From assembly GCA_030691865.1 (NCBI GenBank), contig JAUYDL010000041.1:758-64757 (forward strand): a stretch of DNA of 64,000 nucleotides. Direction: 5' to 3'. The notes under the pieces are model-generated. The model saw only the letters and a list, made by a program, of their open reading frames with translations, had not been told where the DNA came from and did not search any database. The translations under genes were made by a program, and so were the position numbers. Each line of letters opens with the position of its first letter. Position 1 is the first letter of the stretch. Positions 1-6,021 of this stretch are shown here, piece by piece. Source of the stretch: Candidatus Omnitrophota bacterium. Its GTDB lineage: Bacteria; Omnitrophota; Gorgyraeia; Gygaellales; Profunditerraquicolaceae.

Positions 1-589
1 TAGCCCCAAATATATCCCTATCTATCAACCCGTTACAGTACACAAAGTATCCGGTTGAAGATACATTAAAACCATTCATCCTAAATAACCATTGATATAT
101 CTCCATCTGCCTCTTATAGGAAATCTGCCAATCGGCATTTATGTTAACCTCTTCTTCCTTTGATGTGCTCTTGTAATCTACTATAAATAGCTGGCCATCT
201 GGTGAAACCCAAACATCATCTATCCCACCTGAAAATAAGAGATTGGTCGGCGTGTCTAGATATGCAATACCTCCATGTAGCGCATCTCTCCAAATATTCA
301 GCTTCTCATGCTTAAAAGGAACCGCCCTAATACCATTCTTTTCCATTAAAGGATGAGCTACCTGCTTTTCTCTATAGATATCAAATTCTTTCTTCAATAA
401 CTTGTCTACAGCGGAATTTAAGGTAAACGGATACCCGGGCGGCTGTCCTACGCCTAATCTTCTGTCCAAGTAAAAACAACGAGGACAATTCATGAATAGT
501 TCGATTTTAGAGCGGCTTAGTTTGAATGGAGCCTTGCTTTGCGGATCGAATAAGTTCTTAGTTTTCCTGCCAGTGTAGTATTTAGACAT
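1..589 (-). CDS. PD-(D/E)XK nuclease superfamily protein (Cas4/RecB-like), partial; runs off the window start
   Basis: Own translation of the minus strand from ATG at 589: MSKYYTGRKTKNLFDPQSKAPFKLSRSKIELFMNCPRCFYLDRR...GGIDDVWVSPDGQLFIVDYKSTSKEE...QMEIYQWL, open to position 1 with no stop. It carries an N-terminal C-x2-C, then GGIDD / IVDYK (D...D-x-K) and a QxxxY motif, as in the PDDEXK_1 / Cas4-like family. It is absent from the ORF track only because it has no stop inside the window. Confidence 0.55.
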   Translation of the reverse strand, partial: MSKYYTGRKTKNLFDPQSKAPFKLSRSKIELFMNCPRCFYLDRRLGVGQPPGYPFTLNSAVDKLLKKEFDIYREKQVAHPLMEKNGIRAVPFKHEKLNIWRDALHGGIAYLDTPTNLLFSGGIDDVWVSPDGQLFIVDYKSTSKEEEVNINADWQISYKRQMEIYQWLFRMNGFNVSSTGYFVYCNGLIDRDIFGA

Positions 590-1042
590 ATCCTCTTAAT
601 TTTGTGGACATCATACTTAATTCGAATTACGTAATGTGTCACCGGAATTTCCGAAAAGGTACACTTTCCAGCACAGCCGACAGACACTTTCCCGATTGGA
701 ACGGAAAGCGTCTGCTTATTTGTGCTTATTTGTAAAAAAGGCAACTCTCAAAAATTGAGGGTTGCCTTAATTTTTATTATATGAATTTCATTTACTGCCT
801 CTTTATATTAAATTTATTCTACACCCCTTCCTTACCATTGTAAATCATTTTTTAGTCACCTTGTTATATATATAACAAGAGGTAATCCCTATGAGGCGGC
901 CCAGAAATATGGCGCGTCAGAAAGCCTCTCTGTATAGAGGTAGGATGTAAATTTAAAACAATTGTATTGAACTATACCCCATAAAATCTATTTTAAAAAT
1001 TAGAAAAAGTACGCTGTCTAAATTATTTCGGAAGGTATCTGC

Positions 1043-1567
1043 TTATTTTTGTGGCAAGCCTAAAAAATCTAACGGTAATTCATAAAAGAAATAATAACAT
1101 CCAACAAAGTTAACATATTTTAAAACATCTTTGTATACATCTTTTTTAAACCAATCACTCAGAATATATACATATTTAACTGATATTCCTAGCGGGGCGA
1201 GTAGTTTATTATATTGCTTATTCTTGAAGTCACAAGTCTGAAGCTTTTCATCTACAGAACCCGCTACTTCTTGAAATTTAATTTCGATAATATAAAGTGT
1301 CTTGCCAGCTAAAATTAAGATTGCTTCATCGGGTAATAATTTTTTAGAAATTATTACCGAATAATCGATGTTATTTGGCTCAAGTAAATTTTTATATAAT
1401 TTATTTTTTCCATAAAACTCTGCGACTTTCCCCTTGTTAAAATAAACAATATCTTCTTCAACGCTATAACCGGGTAAGGATGCTAATAGGCTCTTCATCG
1501 CTACTCTAGACTCAAATCTTAATCCAGAATGAGCGGTTTTTGCTCCACCTTTACCACCCTTAATCAT
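1043..1567 (-). CDS. putative PD-(D/E)xK restriction endonuclease-like protein, last gene of the methyltransferase operon
   Basis: 174 aa. Motif LLPDEAILILAGKTLYIIEIKFQ fits PD-x(n)-ExK. Its start overlaps the upstream ORF by 8 nt, so it is co-oriented and co-transcribed with the MTase. No recognisable family beyond the motif. Confidence 0.4.
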   Translation of the reverse strand: MIKGGKGGAKTAHSGLRFESRVAMKSLLASLPGYSVEEDIVYFNKGKVAEFYGKNKLYKNLLEPNNIDYSVIISKKLLPDEAILILAGKTLYIIEIKFQEVAGSVDEKLQTCDFKNKQYNKLLAPLGISVKYVYILSDWFKKDVYKDVLKYVNFVGCYYFFYELPLDFLGLPQK

Positions 1568-2171
1568 TTTTTTCCAAAAAAGACTTCTTCAATTTTTCTT
1601 TAAGATCTAAGATTCCGTCTCCGGTTTTTACCCAATCATCATCTAACTTTTTCCAGCCTTCCCAAGACATAGCCCTCCCCTTATATTTAGGAGGAGGATA
1701 ATTACAATCCTCTTGCCCCCATATCCATTTATAAACCTTGAGAAGAACCTCCGGGCTCTCTCCACAAGGATTTATTATCTTAATCTTGCTAAGAATATCA
1801 TCCGGCTCTTCTCCATTATAGACCTTCTCTAATGCCTCAATCATTATAAGTGTTTCCTTAGGATTACATATAGCTTTATCTCTTAAATCGTTAGAAATAT
1901 TAGCGTGAGATATTAGCCAAAGAGATTCTTCGTTTGGATTATAAACCCACACCATAAAATCATCTCTTTTTATTGTACCAAAGCTAAATTTACCACCCGG
2001 CTTAGTAACAACTATTTTCCTCCCATCCGAGACTTGCTCCACTTCATATCCTCTGTACTTTATTTTTTCTAAAGCCTCTTGGAACTTATCTTTTGGTTGA
2101 TTTTTTATCTTTAAATCAGATAAATCAATTGAATGTTTATAAATATTAATTCTTGCTTTTTTCTTTGCCAT
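1560..2171 (-). CDS. hypothetical protein (203 aa), third gene of the MTase operon
   Basis: Long ORF, co-oriented, overlapping the downstream gene by 8 nt. No motif I recognise. Confidence 0.4.
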   Translation of the reverse strand: MAKKKARINIYKHSIDLSDLKIKNQPKDKFQEALEKIKYRGYEVEQVSDGRKIVVTKPGGKFSFGTIKRDDFMVWVYNPNEESLWLISHANISNDLRDKAICNPKETLIMIEALEKVYNGEEPDDILSKIKIINPCGESPEVLLKVYKWIWGQEDCNYPPPKYKGRAMSWEGWKKLDDDWVKTGDGILDLKEKLKKSFLEKND

Positions 2172-2258
2172 ATTTAATGGTGTCGAATTCGTCTTTAAGA
2201 CTTTACTCTTTCATCAAAAATCTTCTTCCAAGATTTACTGTTTGCCATATTTTATAAA

Positions 2259-2657
2259 TTAAATTATTACTAAAGCTTCTTTATCGTCTATTTTGTAATC
2301 GTACCCTAAAAAAATCTTTTCATCCTTATTTAGTAGAGTAGTGTCTAATAAAATATTTTCTGCTTTAAACGTTTTTTCTATTACTTTACCGCCAATTTCT
2401 TTGGCATATCGGGATGCAACTTCCTTCTTATAAGTCCAGCTTTCTAAGCCTATATAATTTTCTCCATTATATTTATTAATTCCTCGATACAGCTTAACTG
2501 ATTCTTTTTTCTTAAATTGAGATAAAAAATCAATTATCTTTTTGTCTGGATATTTGATGGGAGCTTCAAAAGCAGATTTATGAAAATACTCATCTGTCCA
2601 AGAAGAAACATAGGCTGGAATTTCCATTTTAGAGGACATGTTTTTAATGTTTCCCAT
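2259..2657 (-). CDS. hypothetical protein (132 aa), second gene of the MTase operon
   Basis: Its start overlaps the MTase stop by 14 nt. The residues YRG...ESWTY...AEN are faintly ART-like (R-S-E) but unconvincing. Confidence 0.4.
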   Translation of the reverse strand: MGNIKNMSSKMEIPAYVSSWTDEYFHKSAFEAPIKYPDKKIIDFLSQFKKKESVKLYRGINKYNGENYIGLESWTYKKEVASRYAKEIGGKVIEKTFKAENILLDTTLLNKDEKIFLGYDYKIDDKEALVII

Positions 2658-3522
2658 CTAATTCCTTAAGCCTCTTTATTGAAGTCTTCAGGTATTCCTC
2701 TTCCAACTCAACTCCTATAAACTGCCTCTTCTCTTTAACTGCCACAACGCCGGTGGTAGAGCTTCCAGCAAAAGGATCTAAAACTATATCCCCCTGTCTT
2801 GTTGAAGCCAACACAATTCTATCCAATAATTCTATTGGTTTTTGTGTAGGATGCTTACCATATATTTTCTCTGCAAAACCTGGGGCTTTAATCGACCAAA
2901 GACTAAGCATTTGTTTATTATTATTCATTTTTCTCATTAAGTCATAATCAAAATAATGCTTGCTGTATTTATTTTTCGCAGCCCAGAGAATAGTTTCGGT
3001 GGAATGCGTAAAATAGCGGCAGCTTAAATTTGGCGGAGGATTTACTTTAAACCAAGCAATGTCATTTAATATTTTATAACCTAAAGTTTGCATTGCCGAG
3101 CCTACGGTATAGATGATGTGTGACGTACCAGAGACCCAAATAGTTCCATTAGGTGTCAAAACCCTCTGACATTCCCTTAGCCATCTTTGCGTAAAAATGT
3201 AGTTTCCTTCTACTCCTTTAGACTCATCCCACTTACCTTTATTTACAGAAACCATTTTACCAGCATGACAGGTGAAACCACCATTAGATAAAAAATATGG
3301 CGGATCCGCAAAGATCATATCAATGGAGTTTTCAGGAAGATTGGGAAGAATGTCAAAACAATTCGCCTTAAATAAAGCAATATTGCGCTTCGTATCTTCA
3401 AAATACGGCTTTTGGGGGATATTTTTAAACAGATGAAGAATATTCTTCTTACGGATTACTTTTTCTTGAGTAATGGTAGGCATATAAGTGAGAAGCTGAA
3501 CTTTTACTGCTTGATTTTCCAT
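2644..3522 (-). CDS. DNA methyltransferase, beta-class N6-adenine / N4-cytosine (DPPY before FxGxG)
   Basis: IFADPPYFLSNGG (motif IV) precedes LDPFAGSSTTGVVA (motif I). A strong GGAGGTGG Shine-Dalgarno sits upstream of the ATG at 3522. Confidence 0.85.
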   Translation of the reverse strand: MENQAVKVQLLTYMPTITQEKVIRKKNILHLFKNIPQKPYFEDTKRNIALFKANCFDILPNLPENSIDMIFADPPYFLSNGGFTCHAGKMVSVNKGKWDESKGVEGNYIFTQRWLRECQRVLTPNGTIWVSGTSHIIYTVGSAMQTLGYKILNDIAWFKVNPPPNLSCRYFTHSTETILWAAKNKYSKHYFDYDLMRKMNNNKQMLSLWSIKAPGFAEKIYGKHPTQKPIELLDRIVLASTRQGDIVLDPFAGSSTTGVVAVKEKRQFIGVELEEEYLKTSIKRLKELDGKH

Positions 3523-3637
3523 ATTTTACCACCTCCTACTATAATTGACGTAGAGAGTTGGTAAAATCTAACATAAATTTTTTAATCTACCTCAGTCCCC
3601 TCCCACCTTTTATTCTGGGCAAACTTAAAATGTATAT

Positions 3638-3695
3638 CTAGCGGGTGGCGCGAGGATGCTTCGAGGCAAATTTGCCGAGAAGCGCCCCGCGACAG
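3638..3695. repeat. GC-rich imperfect palindromic intergenic element (family A, copy 1) between nrdR and the MTase operon
   Basis: ctagcgggt...acccgctag arms flank a core cgaggatgcttcgaggcaaatttgccgagaagcgcc. This core is shared, with palindrome-preserving substitutions, with 47821..47938. Confidence 0.45.
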
Positions 3696-3709
3696 GACCC
3701 GCTAGTTGT

Positions 3710-4177
3710 TTACTTCTTTTTCTTATCTTTACCCAGAATATCCTTTAACTCCACCAAGAATTGCCCCACATCTTTAAACTGTCGATATACTGAAGCAAAG
3801 CGCACATAGGCCACATCGTCAATTAATTTTAACCTCTCCATTACCAATTCGCCTATCCGGCTGGCCAAAACCTCCCGATCGCTTTTTTTCTGGATGGAGT
3901 GCTCAACCTGGGTGACCACATCCTCCATCTTCTCCACGCTCACCGGCCTCTTCTCACAAGCCCGGATAATCCCGGCTAGAACTTTTTTACGATCCCAAGT
4001 CTCCCGGCGCCCATCCTTCTTAATCACCAGCAAAGAAACCTCTTCCACGTATTCATAGGTAGTAAACCGCTTGCCGCACTTTAAACATTCTCTTCTGCGC
4101 CTGACGGCTGACTCTTCGGCTGTAGCGCGGGAATCCACCACTTTATCTTCTTTATACCCGCAAGACGGACATCTCAT
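3710..4177 (-). CDS. nrdR: transcriptional repressor NrdR
   Basis: MRCPSCGYKEDKVVDSRATAEE...ECLKCGKRFTTYE zinc ribbon followed by an ATP-cone. Confidence 0.9.
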   Translation of the reverse strand: MRCPSCGYKEDKVVDSRATAEESAVRRRRECLKCGKRFTTYEYVEEVSLLVIKKDGRRETWDRKKVLAGIIRACEKRPVSVEKMEDVVTQVEHSIQKKSDREVLASRIGELVMERLKLIDDVAYVRFASVYRQFKDVGQFLVELKDILGKDKKKK

Positions 4178-4248
4178 CCCGCACCTTCTTTCTTATTTAA
4201 TTTATTAAACCACATGACTTTAATAGTTGAATATATAGAAGGTGCGGG
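4178..4248 (-). promoter_or_regulatory. long inverted repeat spanning the whole comEB-nrdR spacer; one arm contains the nrdR ribosome binding site
   Basis: cccgcaccttct (4178..4189) pairs with agaaggtgcggg (4237..4248) around an AT-rich 47-nt loop. On the mRNA strand GAAGGTGCGGG-ATG lies inside the stem. Confidence 0.35.
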
Positions 4249-4250
4249 GC

Positions 4251-4712
4251 TCATATTTTCCTTATTTTAATTTTTGCCTGCTTTAAAAATTCCATGGCCA
4301 ACTTATCCGGATAACCTCGCGCAATGACAATCTCTTTTATCCCGGCATTAATCAGCATTTTAGCGCAAATCACACATGGCTGATTAGTAGCGTATAATGT
4401 GGCACCCTTAACGCTAATGCCGTGCAAAGATGACTGAATAAGCGCGTTCTGCTCGGCATGCAGGGCGCGGCATAATTCATGGCGCTCTCCCGAAGGGATT
4501 TTTAATTTTAGGCGAAGACAACCAATTTCCACGCAGTGTTTTAAACCGCTGGGAGCACCGTTGTAACCGGTAGCCAAAATTCTTTTCTCCCTGACTAAAA
4601 CTGCCCCCACGCTGCGGCGCAGACAGGTAGATCTCTTGGCAACTAACCCTGCCATCTCTAAAAAATATTCATCCCAGCTTGGACGCTTATCTGCAGGTAT
4701 TTTCTTTTTCAA
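4251..4712 (-). CDS. dCMP deaminase / ComEB-type cytidine-deoxycytidylate deaminase
   Basis: HAEQNAL ... PCVICAKML zinc-binding CDA signature. 153 aa. Confidence 0.75.
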
Positions 4713-4714
4713 TT

Positions 4715-5962
4715 TTATTTTAATAGCTCCGTATATAATGGAAATTTCTTGGTTAGGACAATTACCTCTTTTTTAATCTGCGTTAATTTTTCCGGGCTAC
4801 CCGGATTTTCCAGCGCATCGTTAATTAGCCCGGCAATCTGGCGCATCTGGGGCTCTTTCATGTTACGGGTACTTACCGCCGCAGTTCCCAGGCGGATACC
4901 GCTGGTAACTGTCGGGCTCTTTAAATCAAAAGGAATAAGATTCTTATTCACCGTAATATTAACTTCACCCAGAATTTTTGAGGCATCGCTGCCTGTAACA
5001 TTCTTGGCATTTAAATCTACCAGTATTAAATGCGTATCCGTGCCTCCGGAAACAATGCGAAAACCTTTTTTCTCTAAGGCCCCGGCTAACTCTACGGCAT
5101 TTTTCATCAACTGCATCTGATACTGTTTAAACTCCTCAGTCATCGCCTCGCCAAAGGCTACGGCCTTAGCGGCAATCACATGCATCAATGCCCCGCCCTG
5201 AATTCCGGGAAAAATCTGGCTATCAATCTTTTTAGCAAACTCTTTTTTACACAAGATAAACCCGCCGCGCGGGCCGCGTAAAGTCTTATGGGTGGTGGAG
5301 CTGACAAACTCCGCATAAGGCACCGGCGATGGATGCAAACCGGCTGCCACTAGCCCCGCGATATGCGCCATATCCACAAATAGATATGCTCCCACAGTAT
5401 CAGCAATCTGGCGGAATTTTTTAAAATCAATCGTCCGGGGATATGCCGAAGCCCCGGCCAAAATCATCTTGGGCTTATGGATTTTGGCTAATTCCAGGAT
5501 AACCTCATAATCCAGGCTTTCAGTTTTTCTATCTACGCCATAACCAACCATTTTAAAAAATCTTCCGGAAAAATTATGCGGATGGCCGTGAGTGAGGTGG
5601 CCTCCTGCGGCTAGATCCATGGCCAAAACAGTATCTCCCGGATTAACCGCCGCAAAATATACCGCCATATTGGCCTGTGAACCGGAATGCGGCTGGACAT
5701 TGACATGCTCTGCGCCAAAGATGCTCTTGGCCCGCTGGATTGCCAGGCTCTCCACAATATCCACATATTCGCATCCGCCATACCAACGTTTACCAGGATA
5801 CCCTTCGGCATATTTATTCGTTAGCACTGAACCCTGCGCCTCTAAAACTGCCAAAGAAGCGAAATTCTCCGAGGCGATAAGCTCTAGATTATCATTCTGA
5901 CGCCTTAATTCTTTTTGAATCGCGGCAAAAATCTCCGGGTCTGTTTGTTTTAAATGTTTCAC
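4715..5962 (-). CDS. glyA: serine hydroxymethyltransferase
   Basis: Full-length SHMT homology ([19 protein letters not shown]). The ORF track starts at TTG 5971, but AGGAG at 5972..5976 is 9 nt from GTG 5962, giving the typical N-terminus [12 protein letters not shown]. Start placed at 5962. Confidence 0.9.
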
Positions 5963-5975
5963 TTTGCACAACTCC

Positions 5976-6021
5976 TTGTCTACCTAGACAACACCGACGC
6001 AATACCGCTTAGCGTCGGGTG
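5976..6021. repeat. REP-like element copy 1: 16-bp perfect palindrome TTGTCTACCTAGACAA plus GC hairpin, between rpiB and glyA
   Basis: Seen directly. The hairpin arm gcgtcgggtgcc encodes the last codons (GTRR-stop) of rpiB. Confidence 0.5.

Follow-up and report, generated by a model that had tools for sequence, protein, structure and literature searches.

A probable GATC restriction–modification cassette with two facultative embedded genes in a Candidatus Omnitrophota genome

A 64,000-nucleotide stretch of Candidatus Omnitrophota DNA (assembly GCA_030691865.1, contig JAUYDL010000041.1; the whole stretch is referred to here as the window) carries near one end four minus-strand open reading frames (ORFs). 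They encode, in order, a beta-class N6-adenine DNA methyltransferase (MTase), two accessory proteins of 132 and 203 amino acids (aa), and a 174-aa protein, R174, with a PD-(D/E)XK motif. An original prediction, made from the sequence alone, had located the same four ORFs and had proposed either a restriction–modification (R-M) locus or a novel defence system. Our analysis bears out the R-M candidate. The best overall explanation, to which we assign a probability of about 0.75, is a horizontally acquired Type II R-M cassette directed at GATC, in which the MTase and R174 would form the R-M pair and the two genes between them would be facultative. The system is of a known kind, and its accessory modules are new and uncharacterised. 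A novel multi-gene defence system, the other possibility that had been raised, was not supported, and PADLOC returned 'MTase_II' only and no known multi-gene system.

The first gene of the operon indeed encodes a beta-class MTase. The DPPY motif is N-terminal and the FAGSSTTG motif C-terminal, and it is this order that assigns the protein to the beta class; it matches PF01555 (E 4e-56) and the PADLOC MTase_II model (E 3e-96). Both the S-adenosylmethionine-binding and the catalytic (D/S)PPY motifs expected of a Type II R-M methylase are present. The MTase shares 84% identity with that of another locus (L099), which has a MutH/Sau3AI-like partner nuclease, and 56% with one paired with a DpnII-family nuclease. 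A metagenome scan with the 132-aa family yielded 64 loci, in which this MTase clade was followed by MutH/Sau3AI-family nucleases (14), DUF6996/6997 nucleases (14) and R174 (11), with DpnII-family (PF04556, E 1e-91) and other nucleases as further partners. To our knowledge, all characterised members of the DpnII and MutH/Sau3AI families act at GATC. Moreover, GATC is the most under-represented of the 256 tetramers in the window (observed/expected 0.67, z -5.6). For 80 R174 host loci taken together it is 0.56 (z -26), and in the group with D12 methylases 0.44 (18/18 loci); GATC is the most depleted palindrome in 34/72 loci. All of these figures come from R174-bearing loci only. The corresponding ratios for GANTC are 0.75 in the window and 0.84 pooled. 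Partner genes and host depletion both indicate that the target is most likely GATC and not GANTC.

R174 represents a family that has no Pfam or NCBIfam name and is almost always found beside an adenine methylase. It is large (6358 homologues at 90% clustering, forming 985 clusters at 50% identity) and has relatives in at least 569 GTDB species genomes, spread over Omnitrophota, Planctomycetota, Patescibacteria, Bacteroidota, Elusimicrobiota, Proteobacteria and DPANN archaea. When custom hidden Markov models were run on the best 80 species-level loci, a beta-class MTase was found within 1.6 kb of R174 in 62/80, in tandem, convergent or divergent orientation, and a D12 (Dam-like) MTase adjoined R174 in those remaining loci that were inspected. 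R174, then, is a separate, adjacent nuclease gene that co-occurs with an MTase across genomes, as is typical of Type II R-M systems. The suggestion that the first and last genes make up a canonical R-M pair also holds, as pure two-gene operons of MTase and R174 exist (L007, L015, L017 and others). The two functions can even be joined in one polypeptide, as in a 489-aa D12-methylase::R174 fusion (P0319).

The PD...ExK motif noticed earlier in the 174-aa protein is present (LLPDEAILILAGKTLYIIEIKFQ). No substitution of G15, D80 or E95 was seen in 83 R174 members that share 58% identity or less with the window protein, and E19, P79, K97 and a GS.DEK motif are nearly invariant. The PD-(D/E)XK signature thus comprises E19, P79-D80 and E95-x-K97, and the window protein reads PDE...EIK. 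R174 falls outside both the DpnII (PF04556) and the MutH/Sau3AI (PF02976) families, and hhalign revealed no relationship to MutH-like, DUF6996/6997 or Cas4-like families. PADLOC-DB v2, NCBIfam and PHROGs gave nothing useful for it, and no match was found among phages. DpnIII was considered as its identity and rejected, DpnIII being Sau3AI-like. R174 most likely cuts unmethylated GATC; that its site is the one protected by the methylase is supported indirectly, by the GATC depletion of host DNA. A further domain, DUF7004, occurs with R174 in some genomes: it is fused to the nuclease in a 290-aa R174::DUF7004 protein (P0310), and stands alone directly upstream of R174 in Xylanibacter ruminicola and Parabacteroides (L059:7474-7968, L068:7483-7968). 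It looks like yet another add-on.

The two genes between MTase and R174 are independent facultative modules, each being found elsewhere without the other. Both were found only in or beside R-M cassettes, and so they are not the common housekeeping genes that would have spoken against the original prediction. The 203-aa gene lies between MTase and R174 in four loci (L002, L004, L016, L020), precedes both in two Bacteroidales loci (L076, L078), stands beside a D12-type cassette in another (L052), and ends cassettes with the order MTase, 132-aa gene, DUF6996/6997 nuclease, 203-aa gene in L095 and L101. In contrast, the idea that the four genes form one conserved unit did not survive: exact-sequence look-ups recovered the exact block only in two short same-sample contigs (L001, L010), 1.1-1.3 kb in length. 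The 132-aa protein itself is 100% identical to Q8N80_03260 at NCBI, from a Candidatus Omnitrophota metagenome-assembled genome. The operon had been described as tightly overlapping. This is true of the MTase and 132-aa genes (14 nt) and of the 203- and 174-aa genes (8 nt), but 87 bp (2172-2258) lie between the 132-aa gene and the 203-aa gene.

This gap tells how the operon may have been assembled. On the minus strand it contains ATGGCAAACAGTAAATCTTGGAAGAAGATTTTTGATGA and holds a 17-codon ORF, MANSKSWKKIFDERVKS*. The ORF matches the start of the DUF6996/6997 gene of L095 and L101 at 33/38 nucleotides and 11/13 codons (MANSKSWKKIFDE versus MANSRSWKKIFDD). In those two loci the gene encodes 254 aa (the stop-to-stop frame has 258 codons) and directly follows the 132-aa gene, and the cassettes end with the 203-aa gene that comes next. 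From the relic and the gene order of L095 and L101 it follows that this nuclease has disappeared from the window lineage, in which R174 has taken its place. Remnants of a third nuclease gene thus mark the operon as a recent recombinant mosaic. Recombination would have removed the nuclease from an ancestral cassette of MTase, 132-aa gene, DUF6996/6997 nuclease and 203-aa gene, leaving 13 codons behind, and R174 would now serve instead. The relic illustrates well how one nuclease can be exchanged for another while the methylase stays the same. In a separate locus (L121:5450-6739) the DUF6996/6997 nuclease is extended to 430 aa by a C-terminal DUF7226 domain, which is another sign of modular add-ons in these cassettes.

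The 132-aa family comprises 61 clusters, mainly from Patescibacteria and Omnitrophota. In the 64-locus scan the module was directly downstream of this MTase clade in 59/59 loci with upstream sequence available. In about 15 loci MTase and module share one ORF, as the sequences inspected for six of them illustrate, L112 encoding a 398-aa fusion. The module is found upstream of at least five unrelated nuclease families. Because it always follows or is fused to the methylase, it is tied to the methylase and not to any single nuclease, and the variety of nucleases downstream makes it unlikely to be the nuclease itself. It would serve as an accessory module of the methylase. In two loci (L119:2500-4365, L135:3531-5390) a LexA-like repressor/S24 peptidase ORF continues in frame and without a stop into the methylase::132 fusion. 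Since L119 has no ATG, GTG or TTG between the LexA-like ORF, the methylase and the 132-aa domain, a triple fusion of LexA-like, MTase and ADP-ribosyltransferase (ART)-like domains of about 610 aa is implied. This hints at SOS-linked or self-regulated control.

The AlphaFold model of the 132-aa protein (mean predicted local distance difference test score, pLDDT, 83) retrieved with Foldseek, as its top PDB matches, almost exclusively R-S-E ARTs, including ExoS, Vis, C3, VIP2, Certhrax, iota/CDTa, the 130-aa toxin TreX and KptA. ARTs carry R, S-x-S/T and [Q/E]-x-E motifs on strand 1, strand 2 and the start of strand 5, respectively. Across 58 members of the 132-aa family R58 (in YRG), S73 and E127 never vary and T75 and D125 rarely do. 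These residues fall on predicted strands 54-60, 71-75 and 127-131; the third motif is D-x-E rather than [Q/E]-x-E. Sub-threshold matches to the Pfam DRAT family (PF07357) were obtained for 7/58 members (best E 0.0015). A distant homologue was detected by hhalign (probability 94%): an unannotated 245-aa ORF of Subdoligranulum plasmid OY725851.1 (L160:3530-4267), which reads VYRG...SWT...ESEAIV and so has the canonical triad. This ORF is the only relative of the family found outside R-M loci, and phrog_4776 gave a weak match over the same region. It may link the 132-aa family to plasmid- or phage-borne ARTs. On balance we favour, somewhat above even odds, an ART fold with an intact R / S-x-T / D-x-E active site. 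Other searches with the protein were unrewarding: no NCBIfam model matched it, PHROGs gave nothing useful, sequence and profile searches of PDB with the family yielded nothing meaningful, and no relatives were found in IMG/VR viral contigs. A CcrM-like C-terminal domain was considered and is unsupported, as the CcrM model is among the NCBIfam models without a match and 6PBD was absent among the 50 fold matches listed. A PADLOC HEC-02B match (E 0.008, 14 bits) was judged to be due to chance and dismissed, HEC-02 being made up of an ABC ATPase and a NERD-domain protein (bioRxiv 10.1101/2024.01.29.577857).

The family of the 203-aa protein is much larger, with 1187 homologue clusters. Its N-terminal part resembles the NucS_N domain (PF21003), sub-threshold matches being found in 67/95 members over residues ~36-89 (best E 6e-4). 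No NucS_C domain is present. The C-terminal half is helical and carries the invariant motifs WGQEDxNYP and GRAMSWEG (WIWGQEDCNYP and KGRAMSWEGW in the window protein). No curated family in Pfam, PADLOC, NCBIfam or PHROGs matched, PDB searches by sequence and profile gave nothing meaningful, and no relatives were found in viral contigs. Kinship with DUF7226 or DUF7004 was tested and rejected; the families are unrelated. The varied gene arrangements make the 203-aa protein an optional companion of GATC-type cassettes, and in the Omnitrophota arrangement its gene is translationally coupled to R174, the two overlapping by 4-8 nt in the window, L002 and L004. The protein is probably a DNA-binding helper.

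Several results weigh against the account given so far, and we present them here, and in the following paragraph, together with the alternatives to which they lend weight. The window R174 scores 20.2 bits against PF20472 (PDDEXK_11), below the cut-off of 23.7, which two other family members exceed (P0436, 26.6; P0310, 24.0), and neither single-sequence nor profile searches returned a PDB relative of it. The GATC depletion, as noted above, was computed on R174-bearing loci alone. The closest PDB relative of the MTase is CcrM (6PBD, E 1e-56), which recognises GANTC, and for this reason GATC specificity rests on context. Methylase and nuclease might then recognise GANTC, in the manner of CcrM and HinfI, or some other site; CcrM is the best NCBIfam relative as well, and GANTC is itself mildly depleted. 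We nevertheless regard this as improbable, because close MTase relatives are paired with DpnII- and MutH/Sau3AI-family nucleases, depletion of GATC is far stronger, R174 also pairs with Dam-like D12 methylases, and the NCBIfam CcrM model gives the MTase 244 bits against a cut-off of 830, covering model positions 6-250 of 350. It is more improbable still that all four genes, perhaps with the neighbouring Cas4-like nuclease, constitute one obligate, novel multi-component defence system. The genes are compact, lie on the same strand and include two overlapping pairs, and Cas4-like relatives are repeatedly found in the vicinity of related cassettes, in one case (L134) in overlap with the stop codon of the nuclease gene. 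On the other hand, combinations of MTase with R174 alone, with the 203-aa gene and R174, with the 132-aa gene and R174, and with the 132-aa gene and other nucleases all exist elsewhere, the exact block is confined to same-sample contigs, the middle genes are parted by the relic of another nuclease, the Cas4-like gene comes after a terminator-like hairpin, and no PADLOC system matches.

As to the 132-aa protein, the Foldseek matches are weak (best E 0.045, probability 0.85, template-modelling (TM) scores 0.43-0.50), no Pfam ART family matches above threshold, and it would be unusual for an active ART to lack a visible antidote gene; neither an antitoxin nor an ADP-ribose hydrolase gene was seen with it. 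These same facts suit a non-catalytic methylase domain, involved in DNA or single-stranded DNA binding, specificity or regulation, that merely resembles the ART fold, as do its strict coupling and frequent C-terminal fusion to the MTase and the precedent of a small MTase-overlapping ORF required for methylation in Prevotella intermedia (PMC5608340). This remains a serious contender, though an unlikely one: R58, S73 and E127 are invariant on ART-typical strands, the plasmid homologue has canonical YRG/SWT/ExE motifs, and many close MTase relatives sit in operons without the 132-aa protein. For the 203-aa protein, the NucS_N score of the window sequence (12.1 bits) is below threshold, and its predicted model (pLDDT 84) has no Foldseek fold match in PDB or BFVD (TM <0.35). 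A rather unlikely alternative is that this protein and R174 form a split, two-subunit NucS-like enzyme with a DNA-reading beta domain and a PD-(D/E)XK domain, the former steering the enzyme to other substrates, such as hemimethylated, single-stranded or damaged DNA. The start-stop overlap of the genes, the frequency of NucS_N-like matches in the family and the presence of a distant 203-aa homologue upstream of DUF7004 and R174 in Parabacteroides (L068) agree with such an enzyme. What argues against it is that the 203-aa gene is present in 6/80 R174 species loci (1187 versus 6358 clusters), varies in position, sometimes preceding the MTase, and also accompanies the unrelated DUF6996/6997 nuclease. 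Finally, the middle ORFs could be functionally unconnected with the R-M operon, either as selfish or neutral hitchhikers or as independent defence genes sheltering in it. Both are optional and occur in shuffled order, and unrelated defence genes embedded in R-M, BREX and Hma operons are documented (bioRxiv 10.1101/2024.01.29.577857). We doubt this even more than a split enzyme, given that every 132-aa domain seen accompanied this MTase clade, in several lineages as a covalent fusion, and that the 203-aa family was seen with GATC-type cassettes only. We therefore retain the GATC Type II R-M cassette with two facultative modules as the preferred explanation.

With known systems, the cassette shares most with the GATC R-M systems of the DpnII/MboI/LlaDCHI type. 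It has the same inferred target and the same methylase clade (DpnA, i.e. M2.DpnII), and in other genomes this methylase is paired with genuine DpnII-family nucleases. In some loci R174 lies between a D12 MTase and a second small MTase, an order that mimics the MboI layout and speaks for GATC as the target. The window differs from DpnII and MboI in having a nuclease of another family, no D12 methylase and two embedded extra genes. CcrM and M.HinfI share the motif order of the MTase, and CcrM is its closest solved structure by sequence, but only the catalytic core is matched, the likely target in the window is GATC, and the C-terminal partner is ART-like. As for NucS/EndoMS, the likeness consists of the sub-threshold NucS_N matches in the 203-aa family and the small PD-(D/E)XK protein alongside; it ends at the missing NucS_C, the helical C-terminal half with motifs of its own and the lack of a structural match.

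Two further comparisons concern the embedded genes. Embedding is known from defence operons, such as PrrC in EcoprrI and BrxU in BREX (Payne et al. 2024, bioRxiv 10.1101/2024.01.29.577857). As in that 'guilt by embedding', the window has facultative, shuffled same-strand genes between restriction core genes; the survey took in Hma, BREX, DISARM and Type I R-M, and two-gene Type II operons were outside its scope. Compared with such embedded genes, fusion of the 132-aa domain to the methylase favours a functional tie over mere sheltering. Polyvalent proteins of phages and conjugative elements combine DNA adenine methylase and ART domains (Iyer et al. 2017, PMC5512222), and here too methylase and putative ART share a polypeptide or operon in a setting of genetic conflict. 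Their ARTs, however, belong to the H-Y-D (Tox-ART-HYD2) clade and form part of giant, injected multidomain proteins with a counter-defence role, whereas here a 125-140-aa, R-S-E-like domain is found in chromosomal R-M operons.

A decayed counterpart of the cassette is present in Neisseria gonorrhoeae. In the NgoAXI/drg locus (L159, NZ_CP119142.1, 3303-4456) two pieces of a methylase of this clade are accompanied by a truncated R174 homologue of 151 aa with 48% identity. The locus is a GATC locus and is thus a further pointer to GATC as the target of the cassette. The decayed methylase is followed by the R174 remnant, beside the G(m6A)TC-dependent, DpnI-like Drg (dam-replacing gene), m6A being N6-methyladenine. 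In contrast to the window, both methylase and R174 are inactivated, and the 132- and 203-aa genes are absent. The PLSDB record searched has no annotated feature at the R174 remnant. The gonococcal methylase is called 'DPNIIB-like' in a passage of PMC4269198 and the drg locus NgoAXI in one of PMC6789123; these passages refer to a truncated or 'DpnIIB-like' methylase only, with no mention of an R174 remnant.

The positions of all features are collected in Table 1. The spacer beyond R174 is as previously described, AT-rich (~30-36% GC) and 453 bp long with a 20-bp palindrome, and the partial, co-oriented ORF behind it is real. The latter is a PDDEXK_1 member (PF12705, E 1e-11, score 45.6 against a cut-off of 22) carrying CPRC, IVDYK and QMEIY motifs. 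Its score with the Cas4 equivalog TIGR00372 is 21.7 bits against a cut-off of 65, and no cas genes are visible at window positions 1-6000. Full-length relatives of ~250 aa with a CxxC...CxxC pattern were found at five other independent loci, upstream of the MTase in L099/L100, downstream in L103, L024 and L039, and in L134 overlapping the nuclease stop codon. Association of this gene with the cassette is loose but probably non-random. The link that had been suggested between the R-M genes and the Cas4-like gene is thus upheld in part: relatives do recur near such cassettes, but in the window a terminator-like hairpin comes before the gene, which has no CRISPR association. The hairpin (738-768) has a 14-bp stem and a T-rich tail and was called terminator-like by the scan on the plus strand only; its reverse complement, as read from the sequence, likewise precedes TTTTTT. 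Because this hairpin intervenes, the Cas4-like gene is probably a separate transcription unit. One may speculate that its product processes or degrades cleaved DNA. The palindrome CTTGTTATATATATAACAAG was absent from the other fetched loci except the same-sample L001. On the minus strand it is followed by a promoter-like site (844->816), the hairpin with its U run (768->738) and the Cas4-like start (589). Promoter and hairpin in this ~220-nt leader could be an attenuator.

Table 1. Features at and around the cassette; positions refer to the window
Feature	Position	Strand	Remarks
Beta-class N6-adenine DNA methyltransferase, 292 aa	2644..3522	-	DpnA/M2.DpnII-like clade
Accessory protein, 132 aa	2259..2657	-	ART-like predicted fold
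Relic of deleted DUF6996/DUF6997-type nuclease gene	2195..2248	-	Inside 87-bp gap
Accessory protein, 203 aa	1560..2171	-	Weak NucS-N-like beta domain and conserved helical domain
PD-(D/E)XK protein R174, 174 aa	1043..1567	-	Putative Type IIP restriction endonuclease
Cas4/RecB-like PD-(D/E)XK_1 nuclease, partial	1..589	-	ATG at 587-589; C-terminus cut by window edge
Terminator-like hairpin	738..768	.	Between R-M operon and Cas4-like gene
Perfect 20-bp palindrome CTTGTTATATATATAACAAG	860..879	.	Upstream of promoter-like site 844->816 (minus strand)
MTase 5' leader with inverted repeat	3523..3567	-	Can sequester GGAGGUGG ribosome-binding site; overlaps promoter-like site
nrdR	3710-4177
GC-rich hairpin, 68 nt	3638-3705		Directly after nrdR stop codon

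At the other end of the operon, the inverted repeat in the MTase leader is predicted to be stable (-17.5 kcal/mol, z -4.2). Since the hairpin that would sequester the ribosome-binding site is not conserved in homologous loci, we make no claim that it is regulatory. The sequence AGGAGGTGGTAAAATATG just before the MTase ATG and a nearby TTGACG/CGTCAA element recur in the window, L002, L004, L013 and L099. The GC content of the cassette is 30-37%, compared with at least 45% in the nrdR/glyA flank, and related cassettes have insertion sites that vary from genome to genome. The low-GC cassette would have been gained horizontally and inserted beside nrdR. A defence-island setting, as had been proposed, is not shown, because the visible right flank consists of housekeeping genes (nrdR, dCMP deaminase, glyA). 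Related cassettes do occur amid defence-type genes, with AIPR, KilA-N and LexA in L013 (7119-8807) and near DUF4062 and a nucleotidyltransferase/HEPN pair in L007 (10428-12925). The GC-rich structured repeat reported beside nrdR is a strong hairpin (3638-3705; -41.7 kcal/mol, z -6.5) and not a repeat, with one copy in the 64-kb window; Rfam had no match within 1-4300, this hairpin included. It sits at the border of the low-GC cassette and may act as terminator of nrdR or indicate where the cassette was inserted.

In the mechanism that we propose, the beta-class methylase would make G(m6A)TC and R174 would cut unmethylated GATC, and these two proteins would suffice by themselves. Gene content, conservation, fusions, the relic and the depletion of GATC are established by the sequences, whereas every enzymatic activity and the target site are inferred from them. 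With inert add-ons the locus would be no more than a standard GATC R-M cassette. The common view of Type II R-M systems is of closed two-gene units; here interchangeable add-on genes travel within GATC R-M operons, together with a very widespread nuclease family without a Pfam or NCBIfam name (at least 569 species of bacteria and DPANN archaea). The most far-reaching possibility, which is distinctly unlikely on present evidence, is that GATC m6A methylases of uncultivated bacteria (Omnitrophota, Patescibacteria) have a small, active R-S-E-type ART as their dedicated partner or as a fused domain. If so, it would add a second, NAD+-dependent activity to Type II R-M. Its substrate could be DNA, which pierisin/Scabin and DarT ADP-ribosylate, or else a component by which phages escape GATC restriction, for instance their own Dam or an anti-restriction protein. 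With the presumed DNA-binding 203-aa protein and the recurrent Cas4-like nuclease added, GATC cassettes would in that case amount to modular platforms that draw on a range of accessory effectors, some of them LexA-fused. Should the 132-aa module prove to be a real methylase-tied ADP-ribosyltransferase, it would represent a new and easily tested link between NAD+-dependent modification and classical restriction.

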